A stretch of 64,000 nt of DNA from a virus. Of this stretch, positions 30,493 through 48,909 are shown in pieces; the stretch's first letter is position 1; every line of letters starts with the position of its first letter. The notes beneath the pieces were generated by a model. The model worked only from the letters and a program-made list of their open reading frames with translations. It made no database searches and was not told where the DNA came from. The DNA lies in IMG/VR virus record IMGVR_UViG_3300037804_000367, positions 1-64,000 of that record. One strand, written 5' to 3'. The translations under genes were made by a program, and so were the position numbers.

Positions 30493-30596
30493 AACTGGTA
30501 TGAAGAAGTTCTCGTGTACATCGATACTATTCTTTTTCACTGCATACCTCAGTTAGAATATCATGGCTTAAAGGCTCTAGTAATACTCTGGTAGAA

Positions 30597-30686
30597 TGGC
30601 GGAGAGTAGAGGGATCGAACCCCTAGCCTTTTGAGTTGCCACCACCGGGTTCAAACCGGTTTGCAGACCATTCCGCGGTACTCTCC
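30597..30686 (-). tRNA. tRNA-Ser(TGA), CCA encoded
   Basis: GGAGAGT/ACTCTCC, ACCGG-TTTGAAC-CCGGT, long variable arm. Confidence 0.85.
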
Positions 30687-31346: not shown

Positions 31347-31418
31347 CCTCGTAGGTAGGTAACGATCCTACATCTCCGGTTCTTCAAACCAGCGCTAATC
31401 CATTTCAGCTACTACGAG
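31347..31418 (-). tRNA. tRNA-Phe(GAA)
   Basis: CTCGTAG/CTACGAG, CTGGT-TTGAAGA-ACCGG, T-loop ATCGTTA, G73. Confidence 0.8.
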
Positions 31419-31426
31419 AGTTGTTT

Positions 31427-31515
31427 AATCACAAGTCGCATGGTAGGCAGCTGTGCTTGCGCAGTGAACTGTTCATTGCATTAGACCTCTCTCGAAAGAG
31501 TTACGTCTTGTGATT
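31427..31515 (-). ncRNA. Unknown ~90-nt structured RNA inside the tRNA operon
   Basis: Closing stem AATCACAAG/CTTGTGATT, CTCT-TTCG-AGAG hairpin, further internal stems. Confidence 0.5.
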
Positions 31516-31531
31516 AAAGTTGTAAAAATTA

Positions 31532-32219: not shown

Positions 32220-32738
32220 CTACCCTAACGACAGCCCTCTTGCACTTCTACCATTACCTTTATTTCGTCCGCCAAATGTTTCAGTCTGACTATGACAATT
32301 AGGACAAATTAATCTCAAGTTAGTTGGAAAGTTATTTCCTGCGTTCCCGTCGATGTGGTCTACTTGTAGTGTTAAAGGCTTGTTATTATATTCACTTATA
32401 TTACATAGTGCACATTTATATCCTTGATCATGAGTTAAGCAACGTCTCAGGGTATTTCTAGTTTCTATCAATCCGTCTCTAAATCTACAAAGGGTAGTGT
32501 TCTCAAATTTATAGTTTGCTTGGCAAATATTATTACAGTATATTTTTTTACTATGTTTTATATCTGCTTTACAATACTTACAATTTGATAATCTACCTTT
32601 ATATGATCGTAATGTATTTGTAACCGTTGCTCTACATGATTTACTACAGAACTTGTTTGTTCTTTGTTTAAATGTTAACATGCTGTTACAGCACTGACAA
32701 TATTTTGGATGTTCACTATATATTTGTTTTGTTATCAT
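32220..32738 (-). mobile_element. HNH homing endonuclease
   Basis: FCSKSC, CALC, LQVDHIDGN..NN...NLRLICPNCH.QT.TF. TATAAATA at 32757. Confidence 0.9.
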
Positions 32739-32935: not shown

Positions 32936-33009
32936 TGGCTACCCCGACTGGTTACGATCCAATCCTAACTCTTTCAAAGAGAGCTGTGCTACCAATACAC
33001 TACAGGGCA
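32936..33009 (-). tRNA. tRNA-Gln(TTG), CCA encoded
   Basis: U1:A72, GCTCT-CTTTGAA-AGAGT, T-loop ATCGTAA. Confidence 0.82.
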
Positions 33010-33020
33010 GTCTAAAAAGT

Positions 33021-33096
33021 TGGCGGTATAGACGAGAGACGATCTCGCAACCTTCCGATAGACAATCGGATGCTCTGCCAATTGAGCTACTATACC
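33021..33096 (-). tRNA. tRNA-Asp(GTC) copy 1, CCA encoded
   Basis: GGTATAG/CTATACC, TCCGA-TTGTCTA-TCGGA, T-loop ATCGTCT. Confidence 0.85.
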
Positions 33097-33103
33097 AATT
33101 AAG

Positions 33104-33185
33104 TGCCGCCTCTGGGTAACGATCCCAGCGAGCATAATGCGCAGGTTTTACAGACCTGATCCCCTCCTTAGAGATATACAACGGC
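33104..33185 (-). tRNA. tRNA-Tyr(GTA)
   Basis: CAGGT-CTGTAAA-ACCTG, long variable arm, T-loop ATCGTTA. Confidence 0.8.
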
Positions 33186-33276: not shown

Positions 33277-33897
33277 TTATTTTTTTCTTGTTTTATAAGT
33301 GCTGGTTTGAGAATGACAATTAGGACATAACATTCTCAAATTAGAAATTTCATTATTCCTATGATCACCGTTAATATGATCAACATCCAAAGTAATATCA
33401 TTTCCTAACCAGTTTGTCAAATGACAGCTAGAGCAAATATTCATATCTAATATTTTGAATTTCTTTACTGCTCTGCTAATACTACTCCTATCATACTCAC
33501 TATTTTTACAAAAAATCAATTCTCTTGTCCATTCCTTTTTCCCTCTCCTATATGATTTTTTTAAATCAAAATGTTCTAAACTTAGATTATGTTCTTTGAT
33601 CTTCAATTTCACATTTTTTATATTATTATTATGATAAGTTAAATTTAATTGTTTTAATACATCAGCCATACAAATTGAATTAGCAATAGCTGATTTTAAG
33701 TCATTAATGCTATATCTCATACTTCTACGACAAAGCAAAATTCCATTTTGCGTTAGCCTTTCTGAAAGGATTTCTCGCACTCCAGTGTCTTGACTTTCTA
33801 TAACCTTTAAAATATTTGAGATTGATTTGTGTTTATAATACAAATCACAAAGTTCAACATCTGTCATTTTTCGTACAATTTCTCTTTTCGTCATAAT
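33277..33897 (-). mobile_element. HNH homing endonuclease (likely start MTKREI)
   Basis: CSSC..W....LDVDHINGDH.NN.ISNLRMLCPNCHSQT.TY. Confidence 0.9.
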
Positions 33898-34010
33898 GGC
33901 ACCTCTTATTGTTACACCTGTCATTATTTATAACAACTATAGCACTAACTGTGCCCTAACAACTACATAAAATAAAGAGGAAATCAACAGACTTTCTTAC
34001 TGAATTTTAA

Positions 34011-34176
34011 TGGGAAGTGTAGGAATCGAACCTACGAATGTTTACAAAAGCTCATCAGCCTCATTCAACTTGATCGGCGCTAACCCTAATCAAGCGGTAA
34101 ACTCTAAGTCACTTAGCCTCCATGACCTATTTGTGTGCCCGATGACGCTAATCATCATCATCTCATCTACTTCCCA
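34011..34176 (-). ncRNA. tRNA-like RNA (~166 nt) with an expanded core
   Basis: TGGGAAGT/ACTTCCCA acceptor and GTAGG-TTCGATT-CCTAC T-arm enclosing ~130 nt of branched stems. Confidence 0.7.
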
Positions 34177-34193
34177 GTAAATTGTTTGTAAAG

Positions 34194-34267
34194 TACTACA
34201 GGAGAGATTTGAACTCTCAGTCACCTGTTTATCAGACAGGCGGCTTAACCAATTTGCCTACCGTAGT
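34194..34267 (-). tRNA. tRNA-Ile(GAT)
   Basis: ACTACGG/CTGTAGT, CCTGT-CTGATAA-ACAGG. Confidence 0.88.
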
Positions 34268-34276
34268 AAAAGTGAG

Positions 34277-34409
34277 TGGGGTCGGTAGGAATCGAACCTA
34301 CTTACAACTTTATCCAAGCATTAAGTAATAGCTTATTACTTTCACTATTTAGCCTAGTGATTAATTTTAAGGATATCTAAACAAGTTGCTCTTCCACTAA
34401 GCAACCCCA
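34277..34409 (-). ncRNA. tRNA-like RNA (~133 nt) whose anticodon loop is replaced by a branched insert
   Basis: TGGGGTTG/CGACCCCA, T-arm, CAACTT/AAGTTG, ATCC/GGAT, TCACTA/TAGTGA and AAGTAATA/TATTACTT stems. Confidence 0.72.
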
Positions 34410-34427
34410 TGTAAATTTTTAATAAAT

Positions 34428-34504
34428 TGGTGCGACATGAGAGACTCGAACTCTCAACATCCACATTGGAAGTGTGGCACTCTAGCCAATTGAGTTAATG
34501 TCGC
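34428..34504 (-). tRNA. tRNA-Gly(TCC), CCA encoded
   Basis: GCGACAT/ATGTCGC, CCACA-CTTCCAA-TGTGG. Confidence 0.92.
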
Positions 34505-34588
34505 ATTTAAAAGTACCGCCGTGATATTGATCTATGGTGTCGACCCCTTCGATCTTCAAACCCTTAGAGTGAGCTTATATTACTCAAG

Positions 34589-34661
34589 TGGAGGACACGG
34601 GACTCGAACCCACAATGCCGGCAGTTTGCCGGTGAAGTTAACCAATTACTTCCAATCCCCC
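34589..34661 (-). tRNA. Ala-identity tRNA-like RNA with a non-canonical 5-nt anticodon loop
   Basis: GGGGGAT/GTCCTCC with G3:U70 and A73, CCGGC-AAACT-GCCGG. Confidence 0.6.
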
Positions 34662-34749
34662 GAGCAACATTATTCACACCGTTCGGGTTTGTTTTTATAT
34701 CACGACTTGGCATCCCCATCCTCCCTTTCGGGACTCCGCTTCTGCCTGA

Positions 34750-34821
34750 CTGATCTAGCTGGACTCGAACCAACATTTTACAAATTAACAGTTTGCTGCA
34801 TTACCATTATGCTATAGACCA
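34750..34821 (-). tRNA. tRNA-Asn(GTT)
   Basis: TGGTCTA/TAGATCA, GCAAA-CTGTTAA-TTTGT, G73. Confidence 0.9.
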
Positions 34822-35041
34822 AGGTAAAAAACATTTACTTAACATTTAAATCTTTATCATTCGGCGTAGTTAGTTTAAAAACTACCTTTAGGATGTTCCC
34901 CGTCTGAAAATGTTTGGTGGATTCGCAGAGTTGATGATAAATATCCTTGTCGGTTCCGTTGTTAAGTAAATGTAAAGATGTATTTAATTTAGGGTACTGC
35001 TGTAACCATTACGCTACATTACGGTTCTAACTTAGATACAA

Positions 35042-35112
35042 TGGCGGGTGCCGGACTCGAACCGACGTGCGAGGCTTATGAGACCCCTGAGTGACCACTA
35101 CTCTAACCCGCT
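35042..35112 (-). tRNA. tRNA-Met(CAT), initiator-like
   Basis: A1xC72 mismatch, G-rich anticodon stem, loop CTCATAA. Confidence 0.8.
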
Positions 35113-35335
35113 ACAAAAAGTAAGCCTCTATATTTTTGTTATCTCGGAGGTTGACACTTACCCGTCCTCCGACTACTCATAATTTTTAAAATGGTGGATC
35201 GCTTATTTTTCATGATCGTCCACACCGTAACACTTTATAAACAAACTAGTATTTATTATAAAGCTTATACCTGCTTCACGAACCGCCTGACCATTATCCG
35301 AATTGTTTTAGTTTCGGCAACTACAGTTGTTAAAA

Positions 35336-35459
35336 AGCCCACCACTGGAATCGAACCAGTTCCTAGAGTCGGGTTTGTTCCTTTGCGAAGCGCTTCACTC
35401 GGGACCTCCATCTAATATAACCTCAGCAAGTGAGTGCTCTACCAATGAGCTAAATGAGC
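35336..35459 (-). ncRNA. tRNA-like RNA (~124 nt, Thr-like body) with a ~55-nt insert
   Basis: GCTCATT/GGTGGGC, D-arm GCTC-ATTGGTA-GAGC, T-arm ACTGG-TTCGATT-CCAGT. Confidence 0.65.
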
Positions 35460-35474
35460 ATGTTGTTTGTAAAA

Positions 35475-35535
35475 TGGCGCTGGAACTAGGAGTGCATGCC
35501 TAGATTTACCATCCCTATCCTAAGGGACGTCCAAC
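35475..35535 (-). ncRNA. Minimal ~61-nt tRNA-like RNA ending CCA
   Basis: GTTGGA/TCCAGC acceptor-like stem, TCCC/GGGA hairpin, CTAGG/CCTAG T-like arm. Confidence 0.4.
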
Positions 35536-35541
35536 ATTTAG

Positions 35542-35615
35542 TATTCCAGACGGGGCTCGAACCCGCAATCTTCTGCGTGAAAGGCAGACGAGATGACCAA
35601 TTACTCCACTGGAAC
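35542..35615 (-). tRNA. tRNA-Glu(TTC)
   Basis: GTTCCAG/CTGGAAT, TCTGC-CTTTCAC-GCAGA. Confidence 0.9.
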
Positions 35616-35731
35616 AAATATTAAGATCAACAAAGTTTACCAAGCTTATACTACGCCAAGTCTTTAATCGATCTTAAAGATTTGCTTTAAGGACTGGTTA
35701 TCCTTAAAGACTTTTATCTTTACATTTTTTA

Positions 35732-35750: not shown

Positions 35751-36237
35751 TTCGGATTGGGCCCTAACGCCTGATCCTTTCTTACCTACTTTACTATACT
35801 CTCTATTGTGAGATAGTCAAGCTGTTTTTAAAACTTTCTTAGAGTTTTTTTAGAACTCTCTGACTTTCATTTGATGTTCCTCAGTTAGTATTATTTGTTT
35901 CTTACTTCTTTACTATACTCCGGAACAAAAAAAAGTCAAGCTCTCTTTGAAGAAAACTTGACTTTAAAATTTGATTTTGGATTTTGGATTTAATCTACAA
36001 TTTTATATCAAGTCTCCTAGAGGTTTTTGCACGGGTTCATTAAAACTCGCATTCATGCCTCGATCAATCGTGCACACAGGTGCTGCAATTGTCCCCTGAA
36101 GGGCAATCGATCTATAGCTTGTATGTAGATTAGTAAACATGTGAAATTGTAAATCCTTTTAAATTGTTTGTGTCTTTCTTTTATTTATGTTATATACTCT
36201 GATAACTTAAAGCACTTTATACTAACTTTCTTATTTA

Positions 36238-37623
36238 TTACGAAGATTTCTTTTTGAAGTACGAAGATGTTTTTGTATCCCGTTCTAATCCAACAAACTG
36301 CAATACTATATTTAATGCATCTTGAATTGATTGATTCTTATTCTTCGTGATAGCCTTTCCAATATCTTTAACAGATCCTTTTTGATCACAAAAGCCGATA
36401 ACGAGTTTATCTTTATCTTTAATTTGTGCAATTGCTTCTTTGCATCCTCTTAGTCTTGCTATTGATCTATCTGTATCTGGATTATCATTTAACCATTCAA
36501 CAGTAGGTTCTAGTTTTAAAAACTGTTCCTTCTCTCTATTCTTTTGTCTTTTAATATCGCTCTTTGTGTCCATACCGAACATGCCCATCAATTCGTCAAC
36601 GTCATCATCATCATCATCTTCTAATGGGTTTGGAAAATCTTCATCTTCTTTGAACATGTCTTGAATATCTTGCTTCAGTATCTTATCAGCTACTTCATCT
36701 CTTAATGGGTGATCAAGTTCGTTGCGATCTTCTAAGTAGTCAATCTTCAATGCAAGCATTTCAACTACTTTAATAAAATAGTATTCAACTTTAAATAATA
36801 CTGAACGGGCGTCAATGTTATTAACAAGTGCCTCGTCCCAGCCAAGATGTACATGATATCTTTTATGTTTACGATAATATGATTTCTTTAACTTCACAAA
36901 TGCGTTGATTGTATTTGTATGAATCTGTTCACTATAATGCTTCACTATGTCATACGCAATGTCCATCATGTCATCAGCAACTACTGAAAGACTTTGTTTG
37001 ACATCATCTTGGTGTATTCTTGTTTCGGCTTCATCAAGATCTCTCTCAACTGAAAGCATCCGAGCAAGTCTTTTAATGAACATGTTTCTTCTTGATTCAG
37101 ATTCTAACCCATCACGCAATCTATTCTTTAAAAAGGGACTTAATTGTATTAACTCTTTCATCCAATCAGATGATATTATCTGTTGCTGAAGGTATTCGTA
37201 ACTAGCTAGTTTTAATTCTTCAATCATCTCTTCTGGAAAAATATCAATACTCTCATTTGAACTATGTTGGTCAACAGTAGTAGCATCAATCCACCTTGTA
37301 CTGTTATTGTCTACTGAAGAGTAAACGTCAAAGGGAAACCAGGCAACATACTTTGCTTTTAAATGCATGAGCACATCACCATCAGTCTCGGTGTTAATGT
37401 CTCCCTGTGACAATTTCTCAGCTGCAACGGTGATCTTCTCGTTTGATTGATTGGCAAGGAACACAGCGCCTTCGTTGTCTGTTGTATGTCTAAACCAATC
37501 ATGCTTGCCATAATTAGGATACAACAACTTAGCGATCTTAGAATCTAATCGCAACTGTCCACGAAGGGCAAGTGCCCAATCAAACGTACTTCTTTTATTC
37601 TGTTCCGCTAGTTGTTGTTTCAT
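36238..37623 (-). CDS. Large hypothetical protein (likely start 37623)
   Basis: ATG at 37623 coupled to the upstream stop at 37625. Helical, with an acidic stretch. Confidence 0.7.
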   Translation of the reverse strand: MKQQLAEQNKRSTFDWALALRGQLRLDSKIAKLLYPNYGKHDWFRHTTDNEGAVFLANQSNEKITVAAEKLSQGDINTETDGDVLMHLKAKYVAWFPFDVYSSVDNNSTRWIDATTVDQHSSNESIDIFPEEMIEELKLASYEYLQQQIISSDWMKELIQLSPFLKNRLRDGLESESRRNMFIKRLARMLSVERDLDEAETRIHQDDVKQSLSVVADDMMDIAYDIVKHYSEQIHTNTINAFVKLKKSYYRKHKRYHVHLGWDEALVNNIDARSVLFKVEYYFIKVVEMLALKIDYLEDRNELDHPLRDEVADKILKQDIQDMFKEDEDFPNPLEDDDDDDVDELMGMFGMDTKSDIKRQKNREKEQFLKLEPTVEWLNDNPDTDRSIARLRGCKEAIAQIKDKDKLVIGFCDQKGSVKDIGKAITKNKNQSIQDALNIVLQFVGLERDTKTSSYFKKKSS

Positions 37624-37624
37624 A

Positions 37625-39604
37625 TTAGGAAAGGTCACCAATGTATTGAAGATCTTCAAGTTTTCCACTTTCGATTGCATCAGATACCTTTTCGATATCC
37701 TTAAACCATTTAAGAACTTTTGAAATGATAACCTTCTTCTGCTTACCATCAACCTTTTCAAAGTCTGTGTAGCTTTTAGTGATACCAAGTCTTGATGATA
37801 TATCAAATATCTTTTTCAAAGCTGCTTGTTTTTTATCATCAGCATTACCGGACGTAGCTTTTGCAAGCTTGGCAAAGCTTTCAATGAAACCTAACAATTC
37901 AGAATCGTATTTGAAATCAAAGAATTTCTTTTCGAAAGGGTTTGCTATTAATTCTTTATGATACATGCTCATGAAATATTCAGCTAGTGTATTGAACACT
38001 GGACTAAAAGCTGAAGCATAAGTATCGAGATCAGAAGCTTTCATGTCTTGAGGACCACTATTAGCTCTTGCATCATATCTAGCACTAGCTTTTGAATTCG
38101 GAACTTTTGCTCTGTCTGCACCAAAGTATTTTTGGGTACGTGTTAAGTAAGCTATGGCTCTTGCTCTAGTAAGAGCTTCATCAACTAATTTTACTTCACC
38201 AGTTTCTGGGTCATATCTTTTTACTTTATAATAATCTCCACCATTGCTCCAAATCATTACATGGTCTTGTGTTTTATTGTCAACACCAATAACCAAGCGA
38301 CCACCTTCAGCGGACAAGAAAGATTTTACTTCTGCTTTGTTCTTTAAGTCGGTCCACTCGAGATCGTCCTTAATAACTGAACCACTCTTAGTATCAAATG
38401 ATTTATGAATAGCTGAAACGGTTTTAGAATCTAAACCTAGTGAACTTAATCCTGATGCTTCCGTAACAATTGATTCATCTAAAAGAACTTCTAAGTCTTC
38501 AAATGATACTTCGACTGGTTCTGACCAACCCTTGCCTTCAGGTTTCTTATCAGCTTCTTTGTATTGGCCAGTAAGAGTATTGTAGCAAACATTTGTCATT
38601 CCATTGATACGTCTTGCTGAATCAGATTCAACGACACCACCTGTATCAATTGATTCATCTTTCTCAAGTCTATCTAGTAATGATGTTAGTTGTCTCGGAC
38701 GAAGATCAAACTTATCACATAATTGTTCAAATGATAACTCATGTTTGAGATACTCATCATAAATAGATTGATCTGTTGCTTCGTCTTCTTGTAAGGAAGT
38801 AGATTCAAGTACACTTGCCTTTCCATCAGTGTAGTCCCCTTCAGGTACTTCAATGAGTGTCCATCTACTAGTAGTGTATTTGTTTAATACATCTACAGCA
38901 TTTTTTATATCTTTACCAGCTAATGTTTGGATATGGAATTTGACTTTGATGCCACCGTTTTCAAGTTCGGTGCCTTTGAATTCTGGGAGAGTATTTAATA
39001 TACGGTAATTCAATACACCGTCAAAAGAATGCCCAACACCAGACGTGCGACCATTTTTTACAGTGAACCCTCTACCAGTATTGTACATTGATTTTGTTTC
39101 AGGATTGTAAAAGTATGGTTGACGTCCATCACTTTTCAACATTTGTACTTTCTTACCAGGAGTGCCACCATCTTCTGATTCAAGATCGGATAGTTCAAAC
39201 CATCTGCGATTAGGACCAAAAGTAACTAAGTATCTTCCATCGTCACCCATTCTATTAACACGACCCTTACGACCCTTGCTCTTAATGAAAACCTTATCAC
39301 CTTTATTGAATTGTTCTGTTATTACATCTTCAGCAATTGGTTCATCGACATCGTCCATGTGCTTCTTACCTTCAAGAGCATCAAGGACTCCATCTACAAC
39401 AGTGTCAGCAGTAAAGTTATAAGTTTGTAAAGGTGTTTCACCTGCTACATCTTCTATTTGTAATTTGTACGAACCATCTTCTTTCTCTACTAGGTAAATC
39501 ATTTCGCCGTAGAAGAATGCCATCCACACTGCTTTCTCTCCTCCATAAGCTGTAGAGTTTTCAAACTTTAATTCTGTTAAAACTGTCTGTAGTTCATCAG
39601 TCAT
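37625..39604 (-). CDS. Large modular late protein, probable internal head protein with a KOW/SH3-like module
   Basis: TATAAATA at 39641. ITEQ, VLES, LQED, VVES, LDES and VTEA boundaries. FNKGDKV....G.V motif. Confidence 0.55.
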   Translation of the reverse strand: MTDELQTVLTELKFENSTAYGGEKAVWMAFFYGEMIYLVEKEDGSYKLQIEDVAGETPLQTYNFTADTVVDGVLDALEGKKHMDDVDEPIAEDVITEQFNKGDKVFIKSKGRKGRVNRMGDDGRYLVTFGPNRRWFELSDLESEDGGTPGKKVQMLKSDGRQPYFYNPETKSMYNTGRGFTVKNGRTSGVGHSFDGVLNYRILNTLPEFKGTELENGGIKVKFHIQTLAGKDIKNAVDVLNKYTTSRWTLIEVPEGDYTDGKASVLESTSLQEDEATDQSIYDEYLKHELSFEQLCDKFDLRPRQLTSLLDRLEKDESIDTGGVVESDSARRINGMTNVCYNTLTGQYKEADKKPEGKGWSEPVEVSFEDLEVLLDESIVTEASGLSSLGLDSKTVSAIHKSFDTKSGSVIKDDLEWTDLKNKAEVKSFLSAEGGRLVIGVDNKTQDHVMIWSNGGDYYKVKRYDPETGEVKLVDEALTRARAIAYLTRTQKYFGADRAKVPNSKASARYDARANSGPQDMKASDLDTYASAFSPVFNTLAEYFMSMYHKELIANPFEKKFFDFKYDSELLGFIESFAKLAKATSGNADDKKQAALKKIFDISSRLGITKSYTDFEKVDGKQKKVIISKVLKWFKDIEKVSDAIESGKLEDLQYIGDLS

Positions 39605-48249: not shown

Positions 48250-48527
48250 TTTTTGTACTCCTGGTTGTGTAAATGTTTACTCATCTGTTTTGTTAGTATG
48301 AATTGTTGAGCTGTTAGTTTATCAATTGTTCGCCAATGGCCTGGAATGTCATAGCTGACATGTTGCCATCCTAATATTGACAACCACTTATAATTAGTAT
48401 CCCCTTTGCTTGCAAACAATACAAAGTTTTTGTCATCGGAATAGTTTGTCAAGAAGAACTTGTTCATTGTGTCAACACATAATTTCTCTTTGACATCATT
48501 CATTTTAACTACAACCCTTTTCGCCAT
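48246..48527 (-). CDS. Hypothetical protein with an MSKHL motif near the C-terminus (likely start MAKRVV)
   Basis: TAATG coupling to the HNH stop region. Start estimated. Confidence 0.5.
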   Translation of the reverse strand: MAKRVVVKMNDVKEKLCVDTMNKFFLTNYSDDKNFVLFASKGDTNYKWLSILGWQHVSYDIPGHWRTIDKLTAQQFILTKQMSKHLHNQEYKK

Positions 48528-48909
48528 TACACACTGTACACATGGTCTGCATGTTGCTAATGTTATTTGAACCACCATTACTCTTAGCCAGTATGTGATC
48601 TTTAGTCATGAGAACTTCATTACCATTTGAGTCCATACCGTACAGATTGATATGGTAACCTTTTTCAGTATAGTTTTTTTCAAGTGCTAAGAACTTACCT
48701 TTAGCTGAACACGCTACGCAATCAACTCCTTTTTCTTTAAAAGTTAATAACCGTAATGAAGACATGTTAATAGTTTCTCCATTAAGTTCAATATTTACTC
48801 TGTTTTTACTAGAAGTTTTGTTAGTAGCAAACTTTAAAATAGATAAATCTTCAAGTATGGAGTGACGGAAATACGTTGGTCTAGTTTTCTTTGTTGATTT
48901 CTTTTTCAT
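48505..48909 (-). CDS. HNH endonuclease domain protein
   Basis: CVAC, MTKDHILAKSNGG.N...N.QTMC..CN..KG. Confidence 0.85.
   Translation of the reverse strand: MKKKSTKKTRPTYFRHSILEDLSILKFATNKTSSKNRVNIELNGETINMSSLRLLTFKEKGVDCVACSAKGKFLALEKNYTEKGYHINLYGMDSNGNEVLMTKDHILAKSNGGSNNISNMQTMCTVCNGEKGCS

Follow-up and report, generated by a model that had tools for sequence, protein, structure and literature searches.

The tRNA operon of a large, uncultured marine phage contains three units that begin and end like a tRNA and carry long stretches of other RNA in between, and the question raised by this locus is what kind of RNA such units specify. The phage is represented by a 128,786-bp IMG/VR virus contig (IMGVR_UViG_3300037804_000367; GC content 0.344) with a CheckV completeness of ~38%, and the first 64 kb of this contig (positions 1 to 64,000) are referred to here as the window. 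The three units, designated c1 (34175–34011, 165 nt), c2 (34408–34277, 132 nt) and c3 (35459–35336, 124 nt), are all encoded on the minus strand. The initial annotation had located them without stating the strand, and its ends were right within one base: c1 is 165 rather than 166 nt long and c2 is 132 rather than 133 nt. On balance, our analysis of the sequence leads us to favor the view that c1, c2 and c3 are genes for tRNA-shaped small RNAs that do not decode, that would be co-transcribed with the phage tRNAs, and in which the tRNA frame would serve as a scaffold for the insert.

Each of the three units has a 7-bp acceptor stem with all seven positions paired, a discriminator base, and a T arm made up of a 5-bp stem and the loop UUCGAUU, in agreement with the well-paired acceptor stems and TTCGATT T arms described initially. 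In a scan for acceptor stems combined with T arms, the acceptor strands were found to pair across 124–165 nt. The 3′-CCA is not encoded in any of the three genes. A closed 7-nt anticodon loop with U33 on a 5-bp stem is likewise present in none of them, and c1, c2 and c3 therefore cannot read codons. ARAGORN called none of the three (0/3) as a tRNA. Using the Rfam tRNA model RF00005, which has a gathering score of 29, c3 scored 31.1 bits with 72 inserted nucleotides, c2 scored 27.2 bits, and c1 scored 13.6 bits through its T arm only. As a control, the acceptor and T-arm search was applied at lengths of 100–220 nt to 80 other phage loci amounting to 1.59 Mb, and it yielded one free-standing match, which adjoins six tRNA genes. 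Since such matches are so scarce, the three units are real and not products of chance.

The three units differ in how much of the remaining tRNA they keep. In c1 the acceptor stem, GGGAAGU/ACUUCCC, is Watson–Crick throughout and pair 3–70 is G–C. Its 5′ acceptor strand (34175–34169) is followed by a core of 133 nt (34168–34036), the T arm (34035–34019), the 3′ acceptor strand (34018–34012) and the discriminator A at 34011. The core takes the place of the D, anticodon and variable regions, so that c1 has neither a D arm nor an anticodon arm; in the minimum free energy fold it forms approximately four hairpins. The GC content of the core is 0.44, compared with 0.344 for the genome.

More of the tRNA is visible in c2. 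Its acceptor stem, GGGGUUG/CGACCCC, contains one G–U pair, with G–C at 3–70 and a discriminator A at 34277, and its T arm occupies 34301–34285. The D region has been cut down to 14 nt that include the GG, and a 5-bp stem of the anticodon type, AACUU/AAGUU, is retained. The insert of 65 nt (34311–34375) has a closing stem, UAUCC/GGAUA, and two hairpins that together form a Y shape. It lies at the junction of positions 37/38 or 38/39, and consequently what would have been the anticodon loop, GUUUAGA (34382–34376), becomes a 7-nt bulge.

The most complete tRNA frame is that of c3. The acceptor stem GCUCAUU/GGUGGGC contains three G–U pairs, pair 3–70 is U–G, and the discriminator is U. A canonical D arm (35450–35436) has U8, A14, G18, G19 and A21 all present. 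It is followed by a mini hairpin, CUCA-CUUGC-UGAG (35434–35422), with a 4-bp stem and a 5-nt loop, by a variable region of 61 nt (35421–35361), and by the T arm (35360–35344). The fold of c3 retains the acceptor, D and T arms, and its Rfam tRNA match has an E value of 3.4e-5, with the inserted nucleotides divided as 54 + 18; the GC content of the insert is 0.49. The proposal that an insert replaces the anticodon arm in all three units thus describes c1 exactly and c2 roughly, given the stem and bulge that c2 keeps, whereas in c3 the mini hairpin is kept and the extra RNA lies in the variable region. The broader proposal, a tRNA mimic that retains what RNase P and the CCA-adding enzyme recognize and yet does not decode, fits the anatomy of all three.

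The setting of these genes is that of tRNA genes. Nearly all genes of the contig are on the minus strand, and on this strand a tRNA array extends from 35615 down to 28785, in which ARAGORN identified 27 genes and Rfam together with inspection a few more; the tRNA operon that houses c1, c2 and c3 comprises 30 genes. The three units are located between tRNA-Glu and a gene for an HNH endonuclease, with spacers of 9–81 nt to the tRNAs. c3 starts 81 nt past tRNA-Glu, the first gene of the array. Further downstream on the minus strand the order is tRNA-Gly(UCC) (34428–34504), 19–22 nt, c2, 9 nt, tRNA-Ile(GAU) (34193–34267), 17 nt, c1, 87 nt and the HNH gene; both tRNAs, also on the minus strand, were identified by ARAGORN and by Rfam at 68–69 bits. 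A consensus scan located two strong promoter-like sites of the type TTGACT-16-TATAGT (10/12 matches) at 35793–35939 on the minus strand, upstream of tRNA-Glu, and no convincing minus-strand terminator between 35600 and 34000. The promoter-like sites are likely to mark the start of the operon segment that contains c3, c2 and c1. The HNH gene that follows c1 (33277–33924, minus strand) and a second HNH endonuclease gene inside the array (32220–32738) were recognized by the Pfam families HNH/HNH_3 through weak matches at or below the curated cut-offs.

The phage also encodes a tRNA nucleotidyltransferase, the CCA-adding enzyme, at contig positions 97767–98858 on the minus strand (PF01743, 110.7 bits). 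Most of the inspected tRNA genes of the phage lack an encoded CCA.

From this anatomy and from established enzyme specificities we infer how c1, c2 and c3 would be expressed and processed, why their RNAs would be stable, and what their inserts would do. The minihelix formed by the acceptor stem and T arm, to which c3 adds a complete D-arm elbow, would direct host RNase P to cut the 5′ end. Enzymes that process 3′ ends would trim the transcripts after the discriminator, and the CCA-adding enzyme, of which the phage supplies its own, would then add the tail. The products would be stable RNAs of ~127–168 nt that are unable to decode. In these RNAs the tRNA frame would provide both processing and stability, and it would present the non-tRNA insert, or cargo, to a partner that is most plausibly a protein. 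Acceptance of such precursors would be in keeping with the behavior of RNase P, which cleaves non-tRNA substrates that have tRNA-like ends, for example tmRNA (transfer-messenger RNA) and phage C4 RNA (PMC11143913).

In order to place the three units among known RNAs, we compared them with the stable RNAs of phages T4 and T5. In the T4 record, rnaC ('small, stable RNA; species 1 RNA', 139 nt) and rnaD directly follow the final tRNA gene and have the homing endonuclease segB as a neighbor. When folded, rnaC has a T arm, CCGGG-UUCGAAU-CCCGG, a partial acceptor stem and a large structured insert. It therefore shares with c1, c2 and c3 a T arm and an acceptor-type terminal pairing around a large insert, as well as neighboring tRNAs and a homing endonuclease; the resemblance to the T4 stable RNAs that had been suggested for this locus is borne out, down to the position of rnaC at the end of a tRNA cluster. 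There are two differences. The acceptor stem of rnaC is paired at 5/7 positions, as opposed to 7/7 in c1, c2 and c3, and its insert is strongly structured (z −4.6), unlike those of c1 and c3.

The T5 genome (AY543070) contains RNA1 (30501–30644, 144 nt) and RNA2 (32959–33083, 125 nt), both annotated as 'tRNA-like stable RNA with unknown functions'. Their genes share the strand of the tRNAs and are interspersed with these and with three genes for HNH endonucleases. In the fold of each RNA, the acceptor stem and T arm are accompanied by a D-like hairpin and, replacing the anticodon arm, by a long domain. Size, location in a phage tRNA region, strand, adjoining HNH genes, acceptor stem and T arm are thus all shared with our units, and the layout of the HNH genes resembles that of hegA/C/D in T5 and of segB in T4 in their tRNA regions. 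RNA1 differs in having a Leu-like class II D arm and a variable-arm hairpin. This D arm, of the GCCGGAAUUGGUAGACGG type, was seen in T5 RNA1 and in one unit of a marine phage fragment described below; neither it nor the variable-arm hairpin occurs in c1, c2 or c3, since the D arm of c3 is of class I, that of c2 is reduced to a remnant of 14 nt and c1 lacks one altogether. In addition, GenBank lists the T5 RNAs as stable RNAs, whereas c1, c2 and c3 are predicted RNAs. Anatomy, operon context, the CCA-adding enzyme of the phage and the architecture shared with T4 rnaC and T5 RNA1/RNA2 are all direct observations. T4 rnaC, T5 RNA1/RNA2 and c1, c2 and c3 form a class that is defined by architecture and is not one homologous family, and our units are new members of this long-known and unexplained kind of phage RNA. 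The stable RNAs of the T4 and T5 tRNA clusters have been known for decades, and to our knowledge no function has been assigned to them.

Unrelated units of the same general shape were also found in other viral sequences. L002, a fragment of a marine phage with genes for a helicase and a DNA polymerase exonuclease subunit, carries two long tRNA-shaped RNAs on its plus strand, at L002:3007–3146 (140 nt) and L002:3284–3410 (127 nt), and no ordinary tRNA. The second of these is the unit with the Leu-like D arm mentioned above, and an extended rod stands where its anticodon arm would be. A further tRNA-shaped RNA, of 132 nt, is carried by GC-rich viral contigs (L012:4893–5024, minus strand; L013:2562–2673, plus strand; L014:13471–13584, minus strand); it scores 42.3 bits with the Rfam tRNA model and adjoins tRNA-Gln and tRNA-Leu. 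L012 and L013 have two sequence variants of it, whose differences in the insert hairpin appear, by eye, to be compensatory. Finally, a 263-kb phage contig has a unit of 129 nt (L042:20530–20658) next to six tRNAs. A laboratory construct provides a functional analogy, and only that, for c2: in the engineered 'tRNA scaffold', the anticodon stem of a tRNA receives a foreign RNA so that this can be expressed stably, and the design is the same in that acceptor stem, T arm and anticodon stem are kept and a folded domain replaces the loop.

We also searched for relatives of the locus itself. A blastn search with 33900–35700 against 50,697 phage records recovered ordinary tRNAs only and no match to T4 or T5, and tblastn against the same records recovered only ligases of <30% identity. 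Cultured and deposited phages are very distant from the source phage. The proteins of the window include a ribonucleotide reductase, an NAD-dependent DNA ligase and a DnaB-type helicase. Scans of viral contigs anchored on proteins (36238–37806, the ligase and the protein P0002), on the 3′ end of c1 and on a 20-mer of the c1 cargo gave no orthologue of c1, c2 or c3, and neither did searches of viral contigs with gapped patterns of the D arm and T loop of c3 and c2. A scan of metagenomes with a double T-arm pattern recovered unrelated tRNA arrays and analogues but no orthologue, and scans of prokaryote genomes with words from the c3 and c1 cargo were empty. Homologues of the ligase with 50–64% identity (P0004–P0007) do exist, and the same phage is also represented by a contig of 257 kb. 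A neighboring gene has a single homologue, of 25% identity. The relatives that were reached in IMG/VR are not syntenic and have no tRNA arrays; the best of them, L017, has the ligase alone in common with our contig.

The explanation that competes best with a functional scaffold is that c1, c2 and c3 are decaying pseudo-tRNAs, former tRNA genes whose anticodon or variable region was enlarged by insertion or expansion and which are perhaps still processed through their minihelix but have no function. Folding was compared with that of shuffled sequences in order to weigh the two. For whole RNAs the z scores were −3.0 for c1, −3.0 for c2 and +0.6 for c3, and for the inserts alone they were −1.0, −3.2 and +1.1, respectively. 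Only the c2 insert beats the shuffles, and those of c1 and c3 fold no better than shuffled sequence. The argument of the initial annotation, that clean pairing of the inserts speaks against decay, consequently applies to c2 and fails for c1 and c3. The c2 insert in turn has a GC content of 0.26, which is as AT-rich as neutral phage DNA. There is debris in the vicinity, namely an orphan tRNA 5′ half near 34990–35030 (an acceptor strand, a D arm and half an anticodon stem) and unstructured spacers of 218–222 nt, so that tRNA decay does occur here. Despite the common architecture and setting, our units have no sequence similarity to the T4 and T5 RNAs. Above all, no orthologue of c1, c2 or c3 that could show conservation or covariation of the inserts was found in the searches described, which is the main weakness of the functional claims. 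All of these observations count against a scaffold that carries a functional cargo. Decay would also agree with the aberrant nature of other tRNAs in the array, some of which have '???' calls by ARAGORN, 5-nt loops or swapped T loops, and with a possibly related marine scaffold from TARA with a tRNA array (L004), which has no long units at its Asn–Ile junction.

On the other side, the acceptor stems of 7 bp are flawless, the T loops match the consensus, and all D-loop bases of c3 are kept, although neutral decay should strike these parts equally. The whole RNAs of c1 (0.45) and c3 (0.50) have remained GC-rich in a genome of 0.34, with the array tRNAs at 0.498. Moreover, going by their GenBank records, the experimentally detected counterparts in T4 and T5 build up as stable RNAs. 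We therefore take decay seriously as a possibility while doubting that it accounts for these units.

A more specific version of the scaffold reading is that c1, c2 and c3 give rise to decoys or aptamers in a tRNA shell, which would be matured by the host and whose inserts would neutralize host proteins, for example nucleases of tRNA-directed or RNA-guided defences. Judged from the sequence, we think this unlikely. The functions suggested initially, as decoys against tRNA-targeting defences or as sensors of uncharged tRNA, gained no specific support from our analysis.

It is also conceivable that the units are mimics that can be charged but do not decode, and that they would act as amino-acid donors or would titrate synthetases, EF-Tu, toxins directed at the acceptor or other tRNA-targeting defences. 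The minihelix of acceptor stem and T arm, a free 3′ end and a phage CCA-adding enzyme are all present, and several synthetases ignore the anticodon. However, no identity set can be recognized. The pair G3:U70 occurs in none of the units, c1 and c2 having G3–C70 and c3 having U3–G70, and the U73 of c3 with its C2–G71 pair fits no complete known set. Charging in this sense strikes us as a poor prospect.

The remaining explanation is that these are interrupted tRNA genes from whose transcripts the insert is removed to leave a decoding tRNA. It is best illustrated by c2, where removal would give AACUU-GUUUAGA-AAGUU with the anticodon UUA, that is, an ochre/amber suppressor. The c2 insert sits exactly at 37/38 (or 38/39) and is a self-contained folded domain, and the contig contains another tRNA, of the amber suppressor type, with a CUA anticodon (contig 83699–83771, minus strand, 52.6 bits). 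The inserts, of 65–133 nt, are nevertheless too short for group I introns, as noted initially, the core of such an intron requiring at least ~200 nt, and no intron or ribozyme family matched 33900–35700 at E ≤ 10. We consequently rejected these units as hosts of a group I intron or ribozyme. Splicing by proteins, as for tRNAs with a bulge-helix-bulge motif, was rejected as well. The host is a bacterium, because the phage encodes a genuine tmRNA, and in the contig, which covers ~38% of the genome, there is no tRNA splicing endonuclease (PF01974), no RtcB and no RNA ligase. In an exhaustive scan of single deletions with ARAGORN hardly any tRNA emerged: c2 gave 2 matches among all its variants, c1 gave no consistent tRNA, and c3 gave a weak call of the Ala(UGC) type once its variable region was trimmed. 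When c2 was shortened in silico by its insert, ARAGORN did not recognize the resulting 67-nt sequence as a tRNA, even with the threshold lowered, the reason being a D region of only 14 nt. Recoding of stop codons was not evident in the 129-kb contig, in which TAA is the main stop codon and no clear recoding of in-frame TAG was seen; late genes may sit in the missing ~60% of the genome, outside this check. We accordingly hold interrupted genes to be highly improbable, and we give almost no credence to the particular idea that c2 might act conditionally, as a UUA suppressor tRNA that becomes active once the insert has been removed.

Several known RNAs were tried as identities for c1, c2 and c3 and were rejected. 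The first was tmRNA, which is processed by RNase P and tailed with CCA. Like our units, it has a long non-tRNA insert flanked by an acceptor stem and a T arm and, in common with c1 and c2, a reduced D region. It differs in length (~360 nt versus 124–165 nt) and in having G3:U70, which is absent from c1, c2 and c3; the tmRNA model, which has a gathering score of 47, aligns with the T arm and acceptor only and reaches 18.1 bits. The real tmRNA of this phage, complete and with a G3:U70 acceptor, is at contig positions 103754–104117 on the minus strand (Rfam, 105.6 bits), where ARAGORN overlooked it. A likeness to bacterial Y-like RNAs, also proposed at first, did not hold up. The YrlA model, with a gathering score of 69, reached 17.6 bits, the match straddles the boundary between tRNA-Ile and c2, and no TROVE/Ro60 gene (PF05731) is present in the contig, which covers ~38% of the genome. 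The Y RNAs, which are bound by Ro60/Rsr, share with our units a tRNA-like fold that is unable to decode and the proposed kind of role, a scaffold for proteins. In YrlA, however, the RNA ends are on the side of the anticodon stem and there is no free CCA end, whereas the ends of c1, c2 and c3 form an acceptor stem. Matches to C/D-box RNAs were far below threshold. c1 does contain CUGAUGAG, but by eye no GAAA core or helix II of a hammerhead fits. The inserts are not repeated or mobile elements, as there is no second copy of any of them in the contig, and they show no complementarity of at least 13 nt beyond chance that would point to an antisense role within the contig. The region has no credible protein-coding reading either: all of its open reading frames are shorter than 100 amino acids, and one of 56 amino acids on the plus strand, over c1, reads like the translation of an antisense tRNA.

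Other features of the array were noted in the course of this work. In the tRNA-Tyr(GUA), which was overlooked by ARAGORN, and in three further tRNAs the T loop reads AUCGUNN, with U54 and A58 seemingly swapped; tRNAs with such loops are at 33104–33185, 31347–31418, 32939–33009 and 33024–33096, all on the minus strand. The same type of odd T loop is found in the tRNAs of the TARA scaffold L004. An open reading frame of that scaffold (L004:3734–4261, minus strand) has a stretch of 32 residues with 44% identity to positions 48514–48609 of the window, in a region of small early proteins. This shared stretch hints at an origin of L004 in a related lineage of phages. Two spacers on the minus strand also stand out. 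The one of 113 nt between tRNA-Phe and tRNA-Leu (31419–31531) folds into a long hairpin with a closing stem of 12 bp (z −3.3) and might represent a further small RNA of this operon. The spacer of 218 nt at 34823–35040 contains the orphan tRNA 5′ half, followed by a long rod-like hairpin (z −2.4).

T4, T5, a huge marine phage that is very distant from them and several unrelated phage fragments have the same design, which suggests a general phage strategy, in which the tRNA frame would be used as a handle for the processing and stability of other RNA modules. If the reading of these RNAs as decoys or aptamers is true, it would give a role to the old stable RNAs of T4 and T5. If the inserts bind host factors, the RNAs would constitute a new class of phage counter-measures and would also be natural models for the expression of RNA in tRNA scaffolds.

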